DNA of 64,000 bases from an uncultured delta proteobacterium (GCA_963785235.1 CAWAUM010000012.1:224001-288000), one strand, 5' to 3'. Shown: positions 7,838 through 16,307, numbered from the stretch's first letter. Program-made: numbers and translations. The notes: generated by a model from the sequence alone, not told the origin.

Positions 7838-9913
7838 ATGATTCTATTTTTCTATGGAATAACCGCATTCGTGAGCCTGCTGGGGGGGATGATCATCCTG
7901 TCCCGCAGCGGGGCCTCGCATGGGAGGGCTATCGCATGCGGGCTGCTTGCCATTGCAGCCACTGAGATCAGTTACCTCATTTATTATCTCAGAGAAACCT
8001 TGTTGGCACTCCAGGCAGCATCGTTCTTCGAGTTAGCCTCCATCAGCTTTTTTATCATTTCGGTTATTTCCATGGAGAGAAACATTTCGAGAAATATTCA
8101 AATCGTTCACTTGACACGCCGTGGCTTGATCCTGGTCTGCACCCTCTACGGATTAACACTTTTAATCTACCCGGAAGCCTATGCTTATATACACCTCGAC
8201 GATGTAGTGGTCATCGACTGGCTTGGCCGTATCCAGTCTTTTCTTCTCATGGTCGGTGCTATTGCATTTATCTGGCTTATGGAGAACATCCTCAGATCTT
8301 CCCAAGGAGTCAGCAGAAGAGTACTTAAGTACCCTGCACTAGGCTCTATTTCTGTGGGCGCATCCTTGTGCATCACCTCCATCTACAGGCTCAGCACCAA
8401 CAGCATATCTAACGACATTCTCATCCTTTGCTCGCTGATTACCCTGGTGGGTGTTGTATTCCTCATCTTCTTTTCCATACGGTTCAAGCTGTTTGAGATG
8501 GATATATTCGTTTCGCGTTACGTGGTTTATCACTCCATCACCTTTATCAGCATCGGCACATATTTGTTATTCACGGGTCTCGTCCTTTTCTGGGTCACGC
8601 ACCTGGGGATAAAGCTGTCTATGGTTACCACGGGTTTTGTAGTCTTCCTTGCACTCATCCTTCTTTCCATCATCATCCTATCCCCTGAAGCCAAAGCCCG
8701 CATACAATTTTTCATCAATACCCACTTCTTTGCCAATAAGTATGACTACCGAAAGGAATGGGGTGAACTGAGCGCCTCCCTGTCAATTGCCTTCAACGAG
8801 AATCAGATCATTCACCTTACATCCCAGATAATCCTCGATAGCATGTACATTAGAGAGCTTACCATCTGGATACTTGAAGGAGAGTCCTACAAATGCGCAT
8901 TCTCCTTTCCTAAGGCCTCTGGAGATAACCTCATAAGCGATAAGCATCTCATCATAAGTTACCTGGCCAACAACCCCTATTTTATAAGAAGAACACCCCG
9001 AAAAACTAACGATACGCTTTGGGAGGACATTGTAAAAAATCATTCCGACTTCCTTAACCGAAACAAGGTGGAGCTCGCAGTAGGAATGATGGCAGGTACC
9101 ATGATTGGTTTTATTGCTATTGGCCAGGAGAACCCTGGTACACCTTACGGCCAGGACGATATTGACCTCCTGAACGCCGTTGCATCCCAGGCAAGCGCTG
9201 CCCTTATGAGTGCACGCTATGCCAAAAAACTTGCCGAGAACAAGGAGCTCGATACGTACAATCGCATGTCTGCAACCGTGCTTCATGACCTTAAAAACGC
9301 GGCAGGACACCTTTCCCTTATCCTCCAGAATGCCCCTAAACATATGGATCAGGCAGAATTCCGCAAAGACATGCTTGACACCATCTCAGAGGCCCTTGCC
9401 CGGATAGACAAGGTCATGAACAAACTCAAGGCAATCCCTGAGAATGAAGAAATCCATACGAAAACCTTCAAAATCAAACCCTTCCTTGAAGAGCTCCTTG
9501 CCGGGCTCAGGCCCAGACTGGAACATATCCAGGTCATACATAATTTTCAAGGCGCATTCGAGCTTACCACTGATCCTGATATCTTATACAAAATACTCGA
9601 GAATATCATTGTGAACGCCACTGAAGCAGTCGGGGATGATGGGAAAATAACAATTGCTGCTGGCATAAAGGGAGATTCAACGGTTTTCACCATCACCGAC
9701 AACGGTGTAGGCATGACGGATGAATATATCCGGGAGAAACTCTTCAAACCTTTCCAGACCACCAAGAACAAAGGCACCGGCCTCGGGCTGTGGCAGGTTA
9801 AAAATATGGCTGACCAGCTCAGGGCAAGAATTGACGTGAAGGCGAATCAGGACCGGGGAGTTACTGTCTCCGTATGGTTCCCTCAAAATCAATCCAGGCA
9901 AGATACACCATGA
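7838..9913 (+). CDS. prsK: PEP-CTERM system sensor histidine kinase PrsK
   Basis: Multi-TM N-half, FINTHFFANKYDYRKEW signature, GAF-like region, HDLKN H-box, DNGVGM and GTGLGL boxes. Confidence 0.92.
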   Translation: MILFFYGITAFVSLLGGMIILSRSGASHGRAIACGLLAIAATEISYLIYYLRETLLALQAASFFELASISFFIISVISMERNISRNIQIVHLTRRGLILVCTLYGLTLLIYPEAYAYIHLDDVVVIDWLGRIQSFLLMVGAIAFIWLMENILRSSQGVSRRVLKYPALGSISVGASLCITSIYRLSTNSISNDILILCSLITLVGVVFLIFFSIRFKLFEMDIFVSRYVVYHSITFISIGTYLLFTGLVLFWVTHLGIKLSMVTTGFVVFLALILLSIIILSPEAKARIQFFINTHFFANKYDYRKEWGELSASLSIAFNENQIIHLTSQIILDSMYIRELTIWILEGESYKCAFSFPKASGDNLISDKHLIISYLANNPYFIRRTPRKTNDTLWEDIVKNHSDFLNRNKVELAVGMMAGTMIGFIAIGQENPGTPYGQDDIDLLNAVASQASAALMSARYAKKLAENKELDTYNRMSATVLHDLKNAAGHLSLILQNAPKHMDQAEFRKDMLDTISEALARIDKVMNKLKAIPENEEIHTKTFKIKPFLEELLAGLRPRLEHIQVIHNFQGAFELTTDPDILYKILENIIVNATEAVGDDGKITIAAGIKGDSTVFTITDNGVGMTDEYIREKLFKPFQTTKNKGTGLGLWQVKNMADQLRARIDVKANQDRGVTVSVWFPQNQSRQDTP

Positions 9914-9987
9914 ACTATAGCAAAGACCGAAGGTTATTGAGGACAAAGCACATCTGAAAAAAATTCTCAGCATTAGGGGTCTAAGAC

Positions 9988-11346
9988 ATGAAGGATCAGA
10001 TACTGATCATTGAAGATGAATCAAGTATGGCAAAACAGCTCAAGTGGGGCTTGAGCGACTCCTATGATATCTTTACCGCAACAAATGCCGCTGATGCAGT
10101 GCGTATTCTCCAGAGAGAGAGCCCTTTAGTTGTGCTGCTTGATCTTGGACTTCCGCCGTATCCTGACAGCGCAGAAGAAGGATTACGGCTACTGGAGGAA
10201 ATTATCCGGAAAAAGGACCAGACAAAGGTCATAGTGATCACCGGAAACACTGATAAAATGAATGCGGTAAGGGCTGTCTCGCTCGGCGCATACGATTATC
10301 ATACCAAGCCTGTAGATCTTGAAGAACTCAGGATCGTCATCAAGAGGGCAATCCATTTATCCCGGTTGGAAAACCAGGTTTCAGAGCTCCACTCAATGGT
10401 CGCCGGAGAATTGCAATTCCATGGAATGATAGCTACCTCCCAACCCATGTTGGACCTGTTCGAGCGCGCCAAGAAGGTTGCCCGCACCGATTACCCCGTA
10501 CTGATCGAAGGAGAGAGCGGTACCGGCAAAGAGTGTCTTGCAAAAGCAATCCATGCCATGAGCGACCGCTCCGATATGCCTCTAGTTATTATCGACTGCG
10601 GGTCCATACCGGAGAATCTCCTGGAAAGCGAGCTCTTCGGCCATGAGAAGGGATCGTTCACCGGGGCGCATGCCCGTCAGATCGGCAAGGTCGAAAGGGC
10701 TCAAGGAGGAACAGTAGTGCTCGATGAGATAGGCGAACTCCCTTTCCAGCTTCAGGTGAAACTCCTCAGGTTTATCCAGGAGGGCACCATTGAACGGGTT
10801 GGCGGCAAAGAGCCTCTCTCAATCGATGCCCGGATGATTGCCGCTACCAATGTGGACCTCAAAAAAGCGGTTGATAAAAACCTTTTCAGGGAAGACCTTT
10901 ACTATAGGCTCAATGTGATCCCAATGTCCATACCTGCACTGAAGGATCGACCGGATGACATACCGCTCCTGGCGAGATATTTCCTGGATTCTTTCAGCAA
11001 AGAGATCGGCCCGAGGTTTAAGGGATTCAGTTCCAGGGCCATAGATGTCATGATGAAGCATGACTGGAAAGGCAACATACGGGAGATGCAGAACAGGATC
11101 AAGCGCGCAGTCGTCATGGCCGAAGGCGATTACATCCAGCCGCCAGACATCGACCTTGGTGATACCACGGATGAAGGGATATCTCAGACCCTGAAAGAAA
11201 TTCGCGATTCGGCCGAGATCTCAGCCATAAGACATGCCCTGGCACGTAACATCGGCAACATATCAAAGGCGGCGCAGGATCTTGATGTAAGCAGGCCGAC
11301 TCTTCATGACCTTATTAAAAAACACGGCATTACTATTTCAAAATAA
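9988..11346 (+). CDS. prsR: PEP-CTERM-box response regulator PrsR (sigma54 activator)
   Basis: REC domain with LDLGLPP, GESGTGKE, GSFTGA, C-terminal HTH SRPTLHDLIKKH; directly downstream of prsK. Confidence 0.92.
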   Translation: MKDQILIIEDESSMAKQLKWGLSDSYDIFTATNAADAVRILQRESPLVVLLDLGLPPYPDSAEEGLRLLEEIIRKKDQTKVIVITGNTDKMNAVRAVSLGAYDYHTKPVDLEELRIVIKRAIHLSRLENQVSELHSMVAGELQFHGMIATSQPMLDLFERAKKVARTDYPVLIEGESGTGKECLAKAIHAMSDRSDMPLVIIDCGSIPENLLESELFGHEKGSFTGAHARQIGKVERAQGGTVVLDEIGELPFQLQVKLLRFIQEGTIERVGGKEPLSIDARMIAATNVDLKKAVDKNLFREDLYYRLNVIPMSIPALKDRPDDIPLLARYFLDSFSKEIGPRFKGFSSRAIDVMMKHDWKGNIREMQNRIKRAVVMAEGDYIQPPDIDLGDTTDEGISQTLKEIRDSAEISAIRHALARNIGNISKAAQDLDVSRPTLHDLIKKHGITISK

Positions 11347-11349
11347 GAA

Positions 11350-11583
11350 TTAACCAGGAAAGAGGTTCTTAAGCTCTTTCCTGAGTGTCTTTATTATGTC
11401 CTGCTTTTCCCGGTTAGTCTTCTCGACCTTCTCAAATCTCTGGGCAAGGGTTTCAACCTTCTCCTCAAGCTCATGAATCCGGGAGATAATCTTATCGAGC
11501 TCCGCCTTTATATCAATGTCGGAAGAGATGCCTTCCATCAGCCCCAGCAGGTCGTTGACCTTCTTGGAGGTATCAGGATCCAT
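11350..11583 (-). CDS. Small coiled-coil protein (77 aa), last gene of the Pom-like operon
   Basis: MDPDTSKKVNDLL...RKELKNLFPG with heptad pattern; ATG 11583 overlaps the upstream gene by 11 nt and has GAGG upstream. Confidence 0.7.
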   Translation of the reverse strand: MDPDTSKKVNDLLGLMEGISSDIDIKAELDKIISRIHELEEKVETLAQRFEKVEKTNREKQDIIKTLRKELKNLFPG

Positions 11584-12340
11584 ACACCTCACGCTTGGCC
11601 TTAAGCCTGATATGCGACAGGGATGAATACACCCTGTCCAGTGCAATCTTGAGCTCGGCAATCTCATCTTCCAGCGGTTTTCTTTTATGGTATTCTTCCT
11701 CGAGCTTGGTTTCCAGTTCCTGAATTCTTGCAGTGCTAATACCCAGGTCCTTCTCGAGGATGGATACCTTGACGTCGAGCCTTGCCTTGTCCTGGATGTC
11801 TTTTGAGAAGCGCATGAGCCTTTCCTCAAAGGCCTTGCTTTTTGTCACCTCAGCATCAAAACCGATTGTCCTCTCATCGAGCATTCCCACCACATGCTGG
11901 ATATAATGGTCTGCATCATCGAGCTGTTCGTTCAGGAACAGGATCTCCCGATCCAGGAGCTTATGCTCCTGTGCCGCCATTTCGAGTTCGGCAAGATTTA
12001 CCTTAAGGCTTGAATTTTCCCGCCCGATCTCTTCGATGACTCTATCATGATCCTTGAGCTTGCGGGCAACGTCCTTTTTCTCAAAAAGGATCTGGGAGAA
12101 CTCAGTATTCAGATCCTCAATGGTTTCTACAGCCCTGGCAATGGTGGCATGAGCAATGTCTTTTGATACCATGGGGGATATAACCGGTTCTTTGTGGGCT
12201 GCCGGTGCAGGAGCGGTCTGCTCTTTGATCTCTTCCTGGGGCTTTATAAGTACCGGGTCTACATTCCAGGGCCTGTTGGGACGGCGCTTCTGCATCTTGG
12301 GCATCCGCTGCGCTACGCTTGTATCAAAACCGTCTTTCAT
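11573..12340 (-). CDS. Coiled-coil protein, PomX-like
   Basis: Basic N-terminal peptide MKDGFDTSVAQRMPK, Pro/Ala-rich linker, about 190-aa coiled coil; GAGGAG RBS; downstream of the PomZ-like ATPase. Confidence 0.7.
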   Translation of the reverse strand: MKDGFDTSVAQRMPKMQKRRPNRPWNVDPVLIKPQEEIKEQTAPAPAAHKEPVISPMVSKDIAHATIARAVETIEDLNTEFSQILFEKKDVARKLKDHDRVIEEIGRENSSLKVNLAELEMAAQEHKLLDREILFLNEQLDDADHYIQHVVGMLDERTIGFDAEVTKSKAFEERLMRFSKDIQDKARLDVKVSILEKDLGISTARIQELETKLEEEYHKRKPLEDEIAELKIALDRVYSSLSHIRLKAKREVYGS

Positions 12341-12433
12341 AGATAATAACTCCTCATTTCAATCTATTGGCATCAGAAAAAGATCCAATGCCCTTCAGGT
12401 TGCTTCCGAGCACTACGTTAACCATAAAACCGA

Positions 12434-13393
12434 TTAAAAAACAATCGGGAGATTGGGAAAAACCTCCCGAATAAAATCATTCAGATCTACCGAGCCTCTG
12501 TTCTTCGGTGCATACTGCGTAATAGGTATCCCTACACTCGCAGCCTCGGCAATTTTTATGTCCTGGCGTATCAATGTCTTCATAAGATAACCATTATAGT
12601 GCGTCTCCAATGCCTCTTTCGCCCGCTGGCAGATATTGTGGGATGCATTATAGTTATTCAGAAAGATATAGATATTCTCAAAGATGAATTCAAAGTCTTC
12701 CTCAATAGTCGATAACGTCTCGAAGAGGATCTTAAGCCCATGGTAAGACAGAAAATCCGCCAGAACCGGTACAAAAAGATCATTGCAGGCCAGGATGCCG
12801 TTCAGATTCAACAAGCCGATGGATGGCGAGGCATCCATGACGATAACATCATAGTCATTCTGGATCGCGGTTATACTCTTTCTCAGGCGCTGCTCACGGG
12901 CATTCATGGAAGTGAGAGCCAGTTCCACCGGAGAGAGGTCGAGGTTTGCAGGGATAAGCTTCAGATTTTTCATCTTGGTATTTATGATAATGTCGCGAAT
13001 GTCAGTCTTCTCGATAAGGACACTATATAAGGTGTTTTCAATGGAATCATGATCGATCCCGAGACATTGAGTGAGATGGCCCTGGGGATCAAGGTCCATG
13101 AGGAGTACCTGCATGCCGAGCTGAGCCAGCCTGAAGGCATAGAAGGCCGAACTGCTCGTCTTGCCTGTTCCCCCTTTAAAGTTGAGGAATATCTGTCTCC
13201 TTTTGGATGCTAACAAGGGAGGTTTTCCGAGGCTCTTGAGATAAAAGGGGATATCATGCGGATAATAGATACGGACGCCATCAGCAAGCTGGGGTTGAGG
13301 GAGTGTTCCCTCAATCTCCATTTTCAACAGGGACGGCTTTGAAATCCCGAGCAATGTTGCAAATTCCTTGGCCGTATATACGGTCTGTTCCAT
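12434..13393 (-). CDS. pomZ: ParA-family ATPase with N-terminal MerR-like HTH, PomZ/AgmE-like
   Basis: RRQIFLNFKGGTGKTS deviant Walker A, DLDPQGH, NDLFVPVLADFLSYHGLKILFET; these segments match my recollection of Myxococcus PomZ. The ParA call is firm, the pomZ symbol less so. Confidence 0.8.
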   Translation of the reverse strand: MEQTVYTAKEFATLLGISKPSLLKMEIEGTLPQPQLADGVRIYYPHDIPFYLKSLGKPPLLASKRRQIFLNFKGGTGKTSSSAFYAFRLAQLGMQVLLMDLDPQGHLTQCLGIDHDSIENTLYSVLIEKTDIRDIIINTKMKNLKLIPANLDLSPVELALTSMNAREQRLRKSITAIQNDYDVIVMDASPSIGLLNLNGILACNDLFVPVLADFLSYHGLKILFETLSTIEEDFEFIFENIYIFLNNYNASHNICQRAKEALETHYNGYLMKTLIRQDIKIAEAASVGIPITQYAPKNRGSVDLNDFIREVFPNLPIVF

Positions 13394-14050
13394 CTATGAG
13401 CGCTCCCTCATGATCTCCCACCAACCCTGCCACCTTGCAATAATCCACTCGAATTCCTCTGATGAAGCACCAAGGGGTTCTCCAAAATCCTCACCCGTGA
13501 GCCTTTTTAGGGTATGCGCAGCCTGCATTCTCACTTCATGAGATGTGTCTTCCAGTGCCTGGATTACCTGCTCCACATTTTCTATGGATCCCCATATGGC
13601 GATCAGCCTCAGACAGTCCTTCCTGACGGATTCATCCGGATCTTCTCTGCAGAGTCTTGCCACTGCGCCAAGAGAGCTCTTGTCATTCAACCAGAAAATG
13701 TAGCTGATAATCCTCCTGCGGACATAGGAGTCTGGGTCTTCAAGCCATTTGATCCCATCTTCAGGACGGAATGCGCCTCTACGGAAAAGATACCGTATGG
13801 CCCGCGCCCTCACCCTGGGGTCTTCATCCCGGGTGGCTGCATGGAAGATATTCGAGAAATCGGCCTGGGCATCAAAGAGGATGTCATAGATGGCAGTAGC
13901 CGTAGGCTTATCGGCATCTTTAAGGACCTCGGACAAAACCTTCTCTGGGTCCGGGATATCGTTGAGTATGGCCCTTGCAGCCATCTTCTTGATTTCAGGG
14001 TCTGCATCATGCAGGTCTGCGAGAATCTGGTTCAAGCCGATACCCTTCAA
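13394..14050 (-). CDS. HEAT-repeat protein, positionally PomY-like
   Basis: Repeated L-x-D-x-D-x-x-VR-x-x-A HEAT motifs; probable TTG start at 14050 after GGGGAGG; stop abuts the ParA start. Confidence 0.8.
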   Translation of the reverse strand: MKGIGLNQILADLHDADPEIKKMAARAILNDIPDPEKVLSEVLKDADKPTATAIYDILFDAQADFSNIFHAATRDEDPRVRARAIRYLFRRGAFRPEDGIKWLEDPDSYVRRRIISYIFWLNDKSSLGAVARLCREDPDESVRKDCLRLIAIWGSIENVEQVIQALEDTSHEVRMQAAHTLKRLTGEDFGEPLGASSEEFEWIIARWQGWWEIMRERS

Positions 14051-14162
14051 CGAACCCTCCCCTTTTTGTATGTATGAATATAAAGGGGAAGGATGCAATC
14101 AGTCAAGCATATCAAAGAAAAGGATTTTATCCGCTCATGACTCCATGGTAGAGCAGTCCTTT

Positions 14163-16307
14163 ATGGGAGCCCTCATAGCCGATGTAGTCATTCTTACAAA
14201 CATACCCAAGATTCTCTCCTATTCTATCCCTGAAGGGGTATGCCCAAAGGTAGGTTGCAGGGTCGAAGCGCCGGTCAGGAAGGCGACAAGGATCGGTATC
14301 GTCATCGGCATCCACGAGGGAACTCAGACATTTGAAGGGTTAAAGGACCTCATATGCGTACTTGATGAGCATCCTTTCATAACATCCGAACTCATCGAGC
14401 TCATCACCTGGACTTCGAGATATTACCATGCAGGCATAGGCCCCTGCATGGCATTAGCCTTTCCCCCATACCTCAGGGGAGGCCGAACTATAACAATAGA
14501 TATAGACCCGGTCTTATTCAGGACCGATCGCATACAAACCAAGACCGGACCTCATCAGAAGGCCATCCTTGATTCCATACCCCATACAGGCATCCGATTG
14601 AGCGACCTCAAAGGCCGTATACCGCGGCATGGCCCAGAATATGAAAGGCCTCATCAATCGCGGCCTCATTGAGCTCAAGGAAGACCCTGTCAGCTACGTC
14701 CCTTCATGCTCACCAACACCGGAGTACACCCCGGACCAGCAGATGGCTGTTCAGGAGATAAGCAAGGCCATCAAGGCAGGCAGATTCCATACCTATCTGC
14801 TCCACGGGATCACAGGATCGGGCAAGACAGAGGTATATCTGGCAACTGCGATGGAGGCCCTCAGGCATGGCAAGTCGGTCCTCTACCTGGTCCCTGAGAT
14901 CGCCCTGACACCCCAGACCATCGACATGGTCAAGAGCAGGATACCTGTAGAGGTGGCGGTGTTCCATTCAGGCCTAGCCCCAAAGGAACGGGCAAGAGAA
15001 TTCATGAAGGTGGCCTCAGGTGGTGTCAACTTCGTTCTCGGTACCCGTTCAGCCGTCTTTTCGCCTTTGAAGGAAATCGGCCTCATCATAGTGGACGAAG
15101 AACATGACCACAGCTACAAGCAGGACGACGGCATACCCTACAACGCCCGGGATCTGAGCATCCTGCGGGCAAGGAACAACCAGGCCGTGGTGATCCTGGG
15201 CTCCGCAACGCCCAGCATGGAGACTTATCAACGCTCAAGGCTTATCCCATTCAAGCCTCATCACCATGCCGAACCGGATCGGCCCCGCAGCATTGCCGAC
15301 AATCGAGATCGTGGATATGAGAGGAGTGGAAGGACCACTGTCGGAAAGACTCATCACGGAGATGAACCATACCGTCTCCAGGGGCGAGCAGGTGCTGCTC
15401 TTCATTAACCGCAGGGGCTTCTCGGCTGCCATGGTATGCCCGGGATGCGGCAAGGTCCTCAGGTGCAAACGCTGCGACAGGAGCCTCACCTACCACAAGG
15501 CCAAAGGTTTAGGCCTGTGCCACTGGTGCGGCTTTACCATGAAATTGCCCGAGATCTGCCCTTCGTGCGGGTGTCTCGACATGAAGCCCATAGGAATGGG
15601 GACGGAACAGGTCATAGCTTCAGTGGAAAAGACCTGTGCGGATAAGCGCCTGATGCGTATGGACTCGGACGAGATAACGAGTGCAGCGAAATTGACAACC
15701 GCCCTCGATTCCATCAGGGCCGGCCATGTGGACATCATTGTGGGAACCCAGATGATCTCCAAGGGGCATGACTTCCCCAATCTTACCCTGGTGGGGGTGA
15801 TTTATACCGAGCAGCTTCTGCATATGCCCGGACTTCAGGAGCCTGGAAAGGACCTTCCAGCAGATAGTCCAGGTAGCCGGGCGCGCAGGCAGACGGAAGT
15901 CCGACACCAAGGTCATCATCCAGACCCTTATCCCGGACCACCCGCTTATCCACTCGATTTCACGCTATGATTATCTCTCCATGATAGAAATGGAAAAGGA
16001 GATCAGAAAGGCAACAGGCTTCCCGCCATTCTCCCACATGGCCAGGTGCGTGATCACCTCCATGAAAGACAAGACTGCGCGGGAGTTCTGTACTCAGATT
16101 GCATCGGTTGTCAAGATACAAGGCGTCGAAGTTCTCGGTCCTGCCCCGGCCCCCATTTCGCTTTTAAAGAACCGCAACAGATGGCATATTATTTTGAGAT
16201 CCAAGAATAGAGGCTCTCTTCACAAGGCCCTTGACATCATTGAACAGGTCCCATGTCCGAAGGAAGCGGACCTCAAGATCGATGTTGACCCTTATTCCAT
16301 GATGTAA
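14163..16307 (+). CDS. priA: Primosomal protein N' PriA, interrupted by three +1 frameshifts (about 14625, 15245, 15829; likely sequence errors)
   Basis: LHGITGSGKTEVY, IIVDEEHD, Cys-rich Zn region, GTQMISKGHDFPN, QVAGRAGR, IDVDP, recovered across frames. Confidence 0.9.

Follow-up and report, generated by a model that had tools for sequence, protein, structure and literature searches.

Four co-oriented genes in a 64,000-nucleotide stretch of DNA from an uncultured delta proteobacterium (GCA_963785235.1 CAWAUM010000012.1:224001-288000; the whole stretch is referred to here as the window) encode a HEAT-repeat protein, a ParA-type ATPase, a 255-residue coiled-coil protein and a 77-residue coiled-coil protein. 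Our analysis indicates that this chromosomal operon is probably a compact evolutionary relative, in the form of a sister lineage, of the myxobacterial PomY-PomZ-PomX cassette, with the FtsZ ring as its most likely cargo. We class it as a compact operon of Pom type with a putative cargo, and its host belongs to Desulfomonilia, not to the myxobacteria. PomXYZ has been described as conserved in myxobacteria, with PomX and PomY co-occurring with PomZ in one suborder (PMC7993993; bioRxiv 10.1101/2025.12.01.691545), and our literature search found no report of Pom outside myxobacteria, including in Desulfobacterota or in the form of the five-gene operon described below.

The features of the operon are as follows:

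13394-14098, minus strand: HEAT-repeat protein, 234 amino acids, TTG start (Pfam HEAT_2, E 8.1e-19; HEAT, E 1.7e-13)
12434-13393, minus strand: PomZ-like ParA/MinD ATPase, 319 amino acids (AAA_31, E 1.1e-45; CbiA, E 2.6e-14)
12341-12433, minus strand: spacer of 93 nucleotides that separates the ATPase gene from the coiled-coil gene; a Shine-Dalgarno-like GAGGAG lies about 8 nucleotides before the ATG
11573-12340, minus strand: PomX-like scaffold protein, 255 amino acids, with an N-terminal peptide, a disordered Pro/Ala/Glu-rich linker and a long helix
12293-12340, minus strand: candidate ATPase-activating N-terminal peptide, codons 1-16 of the 255-residue protein, MKDGFDTSVAQRMPKM, scored with a position-specific scoring matrix (PSSM) of PomX peptides
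11350-11583, minus strand: small coiled-coil protein, 77 amino acids, conserved part from the ATG at 11583

The ATPase gene abuts the HEAT gene with a gap of 0, and the 77-residue gene shares its first 11 nucleotides with the end of the gene before it. The start codon of the HEAT gene is uncertain (TTG at 14098 or about 50 nucleotides downstream), and residues 1-20 of its product have low confidence in the AlphaFold 2 (AF2) model. The 255- and 77-residue proteins have no family matches, just sub-threshold coiled-coil matches in Pfam. A first-pass annotation of this DNA had described a co-oriented cluster of these four genes, with zero gap before the ParA gene and without parB, and the map of open reading frames (ORFs) and the family scans agree with that description. 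The sole above-cut-off ParB of the 3.9-Mb genome is encoded on another contig, beside a Soj-type ParA; the operon ATPase is therefore an orphan.

The host genome (3.9 Mb in 13 contigs, 93% complete, GC content about 50%) clusters with our Desulfobacterota sample and is not myxobacterial, and homologues of the ATPase at 91% identity carry the name Desulfomonilia bacterium, a class placed under Thermodesulfobacteriota in the NCBI taxonomy. Names, base composition and grouping thus all bear out the earlier suggestion that the genome lies outside the myxobacteria.

The ATPase and its relation to PomZ

An exhaustive HMMER search with the ATPase against 1.84 billion representatives returned best full-length matches at 45-46% identity, after which the matches fall to generic ParAs at about 35%. 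One of the best matches (P0123) is myxobacterial, and its use as a query yields 12 loci (L039-L050) at 54-86% identity from species genomes, whose names are Myxococcaceae, Myxococcales or 'delta proteobacterium', plus one Longimicrobiales-labelled contig. In six PomZ loci examined, the ATPase gene is surrounded by an upstream ORF of 416-637 amino acids and a downstream ORF of 322-434 amino acids. The upstream ORF of the Myxococcota loci opens with a coiled coil, contains HEAT repeats and closes with a conserved ...RRGQRYFVP, and the downstream ORF begins with a PomX-type peptide (MRKAFDANVSRSKPRL type) in 12 of 12 loci. In addition, the ATPases of these loci match 23-24 of 25 residues at the published M. 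xanthus PomZ numbers (bioRxiv 10.1101/2025.12.01.691545). Because of the genome names, the residue matches, the flanking genes and the peptide, we treat L039-L050 as PomY/PomZ/PomX orthologues; these loci come from metagenome-assembled genomes, and the M. xanthus residues are taken by their published numbers. The contig that carries the Longimicrobiales (Gemmatimonadota) label (L049:4645-5762) encodes a PomZ 54% identical to P0123, followed by a PomX-type ORF starting MKSGFDANV, a peptide intermediate between the myxobacterial and Desulfomonilia forms. A further locus, L048, has a GC content of 0.49.

The operon ATPase, which is 45-47% identical to PomZ orthologues, finds the PomZ locus as its top match in five of five Myxococcota genomes, at 268-280 bits, whereas the next ParA reaches 112-125. 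In the reverse direction, the PomZ of L045 finds the operon ATPase first in the host genome, at 273.4 bits against 141.5 for Soj. The MinD equivalog model scores 30.6 bits on the operon ATPase (cut-off 212.9), and the closest solved structures are those of ParA/Soj (8ray, 6iub and 1wcv, 95-127 bits).

Two trees of the ATPase were built, a quick one of 76 rows and a careful one of 50 rows. Their input came from 150 representatives, as 18 top matches and the first 30 of the 44 that are 240-300 residues long, excluding the fragments P0121, P0132 and P0137; four long-branch paralogues of the host's own, P0133, L050, L033, L035, L040, L047 and 16 of the 30 generic representatives were dropped for the careful tree. 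In both trees the family of the operon ATPase falls in the group that is sister to the PomZ clade. Support in the careful tree is 98/96 for the PomZ clade, 93/87 for the group of the operon ATPase, 91/92 for their union and 100/99 for the enclosing clade, and Soj-type ParAs, including the host's own Soj, fall outside this last clade. The kinship with PomZ that had been proposed for the ATPase thus survives a phylogenetic check, as the protein groups neither with Soj nor with generic ParAs, is sister to PomZ within the 100/99 clade and is its reciprocal best match. Three further PomZ-like ATPases of 414-584 amino acids from low-GC organisms (P0124, P0128 and P0131) fall in the sister group with the operon ATPase; in these the ATPase follows a lengthy N-terminal segment, rich in Lys and with coiled coil, and they may combine scaffold and ATPase in one chain. 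Another representative, P0125, is named Riflebacteria.

The likeness to PomZ extends to individual features of the protein. The operon ATPase has an N-terminal extension of about 65 residues, similar to a helix-turn-helix (HTH), and a deviant Walker A motif (KGGTGKT) at residues 72-78. The extension is common to PomZ orthologues and the operon ATPase family, with Y6, L15, L22 and Y43 nearly invariant (alignment A3). Strings typical of PomZ, which the first-pass annotation had pointed out, are present and have counterparts in the fetched orthologues (RRQIFLNFKGGTGKTS in the operon ATPase versus RRQLFLNFKGGTGKTS in PomZ orthologues), and the lysine it had noted in an IRQxxK motif, Lys280, indeed occupies the column of the PomZ DNA-binding Lys268 (IRQDIK versus VRQCTK). 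At the 25 PomZ contact positions given in the literature, the operon ATPase has 16 residues unchanged, Lys268 included, and 6 conservatively replaced, whereas three Soj-type controls carry other residues at most positions specific to PomZ (residue table). Published models put these surface residues against the PomX peptide and the alpha5 helix of PomY (bioRxiv 10.1101/2025.12.01.691545).

The scaffold peptide, the HEAT protein and their co-conservation

The 255-residue protein has the architecture of PomX, namely a peptide, a disordered region and a C-terminal coiled coil, in its AF2 model, where residues 1-59 form a low-confidence head (predicted local distance difference test, pLDDT, below 50 at residues 16-59) and residues 60-253 a helix with pLDDT above 90. 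An hhalign comparison with nine PomX orthologues matches residues 59-247 to 164-356 (probability 72%, E 3.4e-5). The N-terminal peptide, MKDGFDTSVAQRMPKM, aligns without gaps to the PomX peptide of L045, with M1, F5, D6, V9 and P14 identical and positions 2, 4, 8, 10, 15 and 16 similar (K2 for R, K15 for R and M16 for L). In M. xanthus the activating peptide comprises the N-terminal 22 or so residues of PomX, of which Lys13 and Arg15 are essential (PMC7993993), and the contact residues listed for PomX are M1, K2, A4, F5, V9, K13, R15 and L16 (bioRxiv 10.1101/2025.12.01.691545). The gap-free register proposed earlier for this peptide holds both against the fetched orthologues and by published residue number; the essential Lys13 is not kept.

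Among the N-termini of ORFs of at least 100 amino acids, scored with an anchored, ungapped PSSM of 11 myxobacterial PomX peptides (L049 omitted), this peptide ranks first of 8,383 when first starts are used (27.09 versus 16.0 for the next) and third of 67,673 over all starts. The gene in first place lies immediately after that of the PomZ-like ATPase. Across 15 Desulfobacterota sequences no change is seen at D3, F5, A10 and P14 and hardly any at V9, while identity in the rest of the protein drops to 22-28%, and the peptides of two other families (f9 and f5, see below), MSNGFDRSVARKMP and MADGFESSVAQRMP, are in the same register, so that the peptide varies little over four Desulfobacterota families. 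A prediction of the complex between an ATPase dimer with ATP and Mg and residues 1-45 of the 255-residue protein, run with three controls, weakly supports an interaction: the score is 0.35 (runs 0.00, 0.45 and 0.35; best control 0.00), agreement between runs is at least 38% of contacts, and the partner has a pLDDT of at least 29. The calibration set comprised 80 solved complexes, of which 58 reach the mark, and 110 mismatches, of which 2 do; at scores of 0.60 or less the mark is reached by just 7 of the 80 and by both passing mismatches. A word-indexed search recovers 143 homologous clusters of the 255-residue protein; they are unnamed or automatically named, none is assigned to a Pfam family and none is named after Pom. 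The ESM Atlas returns generic coiled-coil clusters only (recognition 1956, below the mark of 2300).

The HEAT protein is modelled by AF2 (pLDDT 89.6, predicted TM-score 0.80) as six helix pairs at residues 22-201, followed by a Trp-rich C-terminal helix at 213-233. Its residues 14-205 align to residues 171-360 of seven PomY orthologues in hhalign (probability 98%, E 1.6e-13), and it is the top match of a PomY hidden Markov model (HMM) in the host genome (E 5.6e-5 versus 0.0048 for the next), in the HEAT columns 275-363 only. The HEAT domain of PomY consists of six or seven repeats (PMC10307791; bioRxiv 10.1101/2025.12.01.691545), its N-terminal coiled coil is required for condensates (PMC10307791), and its activator activity has been mapped to residues 496-682 (bioRxiv 10.1101/2025.12.01.691545). 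The operon protein is PomY-like in its HEAT domain only. The second-best match of the PomY HMM in the host is a 640-residue HEAT-repeat ORF (contig C1:158385-160304, minus strand), and a gene for a MinD/FlhG-like ATPase lies some 2 kb away (C1:162280-163005); the two may be another pairing of a HEAT protein with a ParA/MinD ATPase in this genome.

The distribution of these genes was followed in a phylum sample of 401 genomes, in which f1 denotes the family of the operon's own genome and f13, f9 and f5 denote other Desulfobacterota families. The ATPase subfamily occurs in 19 of the 401 genomes, the host included (f1, 6/6; f13, 10/11; f5, 1/1; f9, 1/1), and in none of seven genomes of the other family in the same class. 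With the 255-residue query, the coiled-coil protein is found in 16 of the 401 genomes (f1, 6/6; f13, 8/11), one match being doubtful, and its gene always lies downstream of the ATPase subfamily where the contig permits. The order HEAT, ParA, coiled coil is kept in f1 (6 of 6), in each of the eight f13 loci that were retrieved and in f9; in f5 the contig begins inside the ATPase gene. The same order is found in the six Myxococcota loci. The arrangement is more than chance, and the flanking HEAT and coiled-coil genes are co-conserved over several Desulfobacterota families, in keeping with the first-pass reading.

Several parts of these operons are family-specific. The 77-residue gene is specific to f1, where conserved ORFs of 77-80 amino acids occupy the same place in L036, L037 and L038 and tblastn gives matches in further loci; no counterpart was found in the f13, f9 and f5 loci. 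The f13 operon (L028-L035) has five genes, in the order ribbon-helix-helix (RHH), HEAT, ParA, coiled coil, coiled coil. Its ATPase is 59-61% identical to that of the f1 operon, full-length comparison of its HEAT and long coiled-coil proteins gives 23-28% identity, and the N-terminal peptide motif is the same. It lacks the 77-residue gene and adds the upstream RHH gene and a 110-residue protein whose N-terminus bears the activating-peptide motif again, along with a PWDV motif; the similarity between the 110- and 77-residue proteins is not significant (best E 0.03). The f13 HEAT protein has a conserved N-terminal motif of its own, M-x-DRFRLxYLKS, and lacks the Trp-rich C-terminal helix.

Division context and alternative explanations

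A mechanism of the Pom kind can be proposed for the operon. ATP-bound dimers of the ATPase would coat the nucleoid non-specifically, and the coiled-coil protein would self-assemble into one scaffold per cell, whose N-terminal peptides would dock in the dimer cleft and trigger ATP hydrolysis. Tethered to the nucleoid, the scaffold cluster would move by a flux or diffusion-ratchet principle and settle at mid-nucleoid, while the HEAT protein (and in f1 perhaps also the 77-residue protein) would ride on the scaffold and couple it to the cargo. The FtsZ ring would be the most likely cargo, since the genome has FtsZ and is without MinC, MinD and MinE. Any division role is inferred from homology only.

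Compared with M. xanthus PomXYZ, the operon has the same order of HEAT-containing protein, ParA-type ATPase and coiled-coil protein (PMC7993993, PMC10307791, bioRxiv 10.1101/2025.12.01.691545). It shares the N-terminal extension and DNA-binding lysine of PomZ, the peptide register, disordered linker and coiled coil of PomX and the six-repeat HEAT domain of PomY, and Min is lacking on both sides of the comparison. The two differ in host (Myxococcota versus Desulfomonilia), in the length of the HEAT protein (234 amino acids versus 682 in PomY, without the coiled coil, the alpha5 disordered region and the globular end) and in that of the scaffold (255 versus 404 in PomX). They also differ in the peptide, which has Met at the position of Lys13 and a basic residue at position 12, in the fourth gene and in the placement of the ATPase in the sister clade of PomZ. 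Like ParA-ParB (Soj-Spo0J) and MinD-MinE, the operon combines a deviant Walker A ATPase with a partner whose short N-terminal peptide is predicted to trigger hydrolysis; unlike them, it is without ParB, a parS-type partner and the membrane helix of MinD. ParABS systems of type Ia and Ib have an adjacent centromere-binding partner (ParB, or an RHH protein of the ParG type), whereas the operon has none and an RHH gene occurs only in the f13 form.

A number of observations weigh against the relationship with Pom. The ATPase is sister to the PomZ clade and not within it, the branch that joins them is below the starred level, and the trees include neither the M. xanthus sequence itself nor a type Ia plasmid ParA. 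Three of the 25 contact residues are replaced non-conservatively (E256G, Q271E and E275V). The position of PomX Lys13 is Met or Phe in 15 of 15 Desulfobacterota peptides, whose conserved basic residue is at position 12, with Lys at position 15 in some only. In the six-frame host genome, an HMMER search with an HMM of 12 PomX peptides ranks the 255-residue protein 325th of 1,384 (E 260), an HMM of the 11 myxobacterial peptides does not have it among 1,516 matches, and a full-length PomX HMM gives no match at E up to 10. The 72% hhalign match to PomX falls in the coiled coil, which is prone to bias. With the profile of the HEAT protein, PomY comes first in only two of five Myxococcota genomes, ties for first in a third and is fourth and fifth in the remaining two; the similarity may thus be one of HEAT repeats in general. 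The HEAT protein, with repeats that begin at residue 22 and an end in one helix unlike ...RRGQRYFVP, has no counterpart of the N-terminal coiled coil of PomY or of region 496-682 (alpha5 and the globular end). Finally, no link to FtsZ was found in the operon or its neighbours, and MinC occurs in only 30 of the 401 phylum genomes (371 are without it), with no carriers of the operon among the 30. Because the two defining features of PomY are missing and the ATPase lies outside the PomZ clade, the operon is not a full member of Pom. The streamlined Pom positioning system outside the myxobacteria that the first-pass annotation had envisaged is supported, and none of the three refuting findings that it named was obtained, but the match to PomY covers HEAT repeats only, Lys13 is lost and the link to division, already hedged there as division- or cargo-positioning, is conjectural.

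FtsZ is encoded on a contig (contig 13) other than that of the operon. In the 93% complete genome MinC and MinE were not found, and the best score of the MinD model is 124.9 bits against a cut-off of 212.9. This answers the check for minCDE proposed with the original annotation, yet MinC is so rare across the phylum that its absence in the host says little. A complementary distribution of Pom-like operons and Min was considered and rejected, as MinC is too rare to discriminate. It is conceivable, if rather unlikely, that the same machinery positions a different cargo, with the HEAT protein serving as adaptor; such cargos could include storage granules, enzyme assemblies, chromosome regions and complexes for chemosensing or secretion. 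ATPases of the ParA/MinD type place a wide range of cargos (PMC11407121), no ftsZ or dcw gene lies nearby, and the operon lacks the parts of PomY for condensates and Z-ring recruitment (the coiled coil) and for ATPase activation (496-682); the accessory genes, moreover, vary by family (the 77-residue gene in f1, the RHH and 110-residue genes in f13), which fits a modular cargo adaptor. However, the operon has different neighbours in f1, in f13 and in Myxococcota, none of them a conserved candidate for the cargo, and the host is without every other known division-site system that was searched for.

It is less probable still that the operon is a DNA-partition system of type Ia or Ib for a chromosome region or an integrated element, in which the HTH of the ATPase would act as autorepressor and the coiled-coil protein (or the RHH protein in f13) as centromere-binding partner. 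The best NCBIfam match of the ATPase is indeed to the plasmid-partition protein RepA (TIGR03453, E 7.7e-33) and includes the N-terminal region, but at 113.9 bits against a cut-off of 348. Weak matches to HTH_17 (E 0.029) and excisionase fall at residues 5-45, and the f13 operons open with an RHH gene, as ParG-type systems do. Yet the N-terminal extension is also present in PomZ orthologues, and PomZ scores twice as high as any other ParA. The f1 operon contains neither ParB nor RHH, with the canonical Soj-ParB pair located elsewhere, and its setting is that of chromosomal housekeeping genes kept within the genus.

Convergence, in which only the ATPase would be homologous and the basic N-terminal peptides and the HEAT and coiled-coil partners would have arisen independently, is very improbable: although sequence searches alone fail to join the 255-residue protein to PomX, the HEAT matches are generic, and activating peptides elsewhere, such as those of ParB and MinE, are likewise short and of comparable character (PMC7993993), the gene order is identical to that of Pom loci, five identical peptide positions fall in exact register in the first-ranking N-terminus of 8,383, the PomZ pocket residues are conserved, and the Longimicrobiales-labelled contig has an intermediate peptide starting MKSGFD.

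Operon surroundings and implications

The contig, of at least 288 kb, has a chromosomal housekeeping character around the operon (priA, the sigma-54 regulator and trpA), which is preserved within the genus. The operon is flanked by a convergent sigma-54 response-regulator gene, which ends at 11346, and by a divergent priA. The former belongs to a pair at 7838-11346 (plus strand), a membrane histidine kinase (691 amino acids) and a sigma-54-dependent response regulator (452 amino acids), that ends 3 nucleotides from the stop of the 77-residue gene; one DNA contig of a relative has 145 different letters at this junction. The priA gene (13890-16307, plus strand) is split into four consecutive ORFs in frames 1, 2, 3 and 1, with frameshifts near 14620, 15235 and 15800. 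In relatives it is a single ORF of 736-789 amino acids, and the copy in the window is either a pseudogene or affected by indel errors in the assembly.

Scans for promoters and terminators gave counts at the level of chance; two terminator-like hairpins overlap the stop of the ATPase gene (5 found versus 2.6 expected, not significant). Contigs of the metatranscriptome library X19, which are 90-97% alike and thus from a relative, cover 22 of 30 bins over 11476-13760; one record spans the spacer between the ATPase and coiled-coil genes (12231-12775), and two span the junction of the HEAT and ATPase genes. Library X20 contributes one contig of 220 nucleotides (13836-14055). Contigs of RNA libraries can derive from DNA, a contig across two genes is not equivalent to a single transcript, and uncovered flanks are uninformative; these contigs are not counted as expression of the operon.

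If the operon is a cassette homologous to PomYZX, the origin of Pom would be pushed back beyond Myxococcota, and the conserved core of the system would consist of the ATPase, the N-terminal peptide, a long helix and a HEAT solenoid. It would also provide a minimal set of proteins with which to separate the parts of PomY needed for positioning from those needed for FtsZ nucleation. The shifted basic residue of the peptide, together with the changed acidic residues of the ATPase pocket, offers a natural test of the proposed MinE-like mode of activation. More tentatively, the Pom principle, in which a scaffold riding on the nucleoid marks the division site positively, may not be a myxobacterial invention: a minimal form made of the ATPase, the peptide scaffold and a bare HEAT protein might place the Z-ring in Min-less anaerobic Desulfobacterota, and the large PomY might be a later elaboration. 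Thus, our analysis suggests that a Pom-type system is older and more widespread than the myxobacteria.

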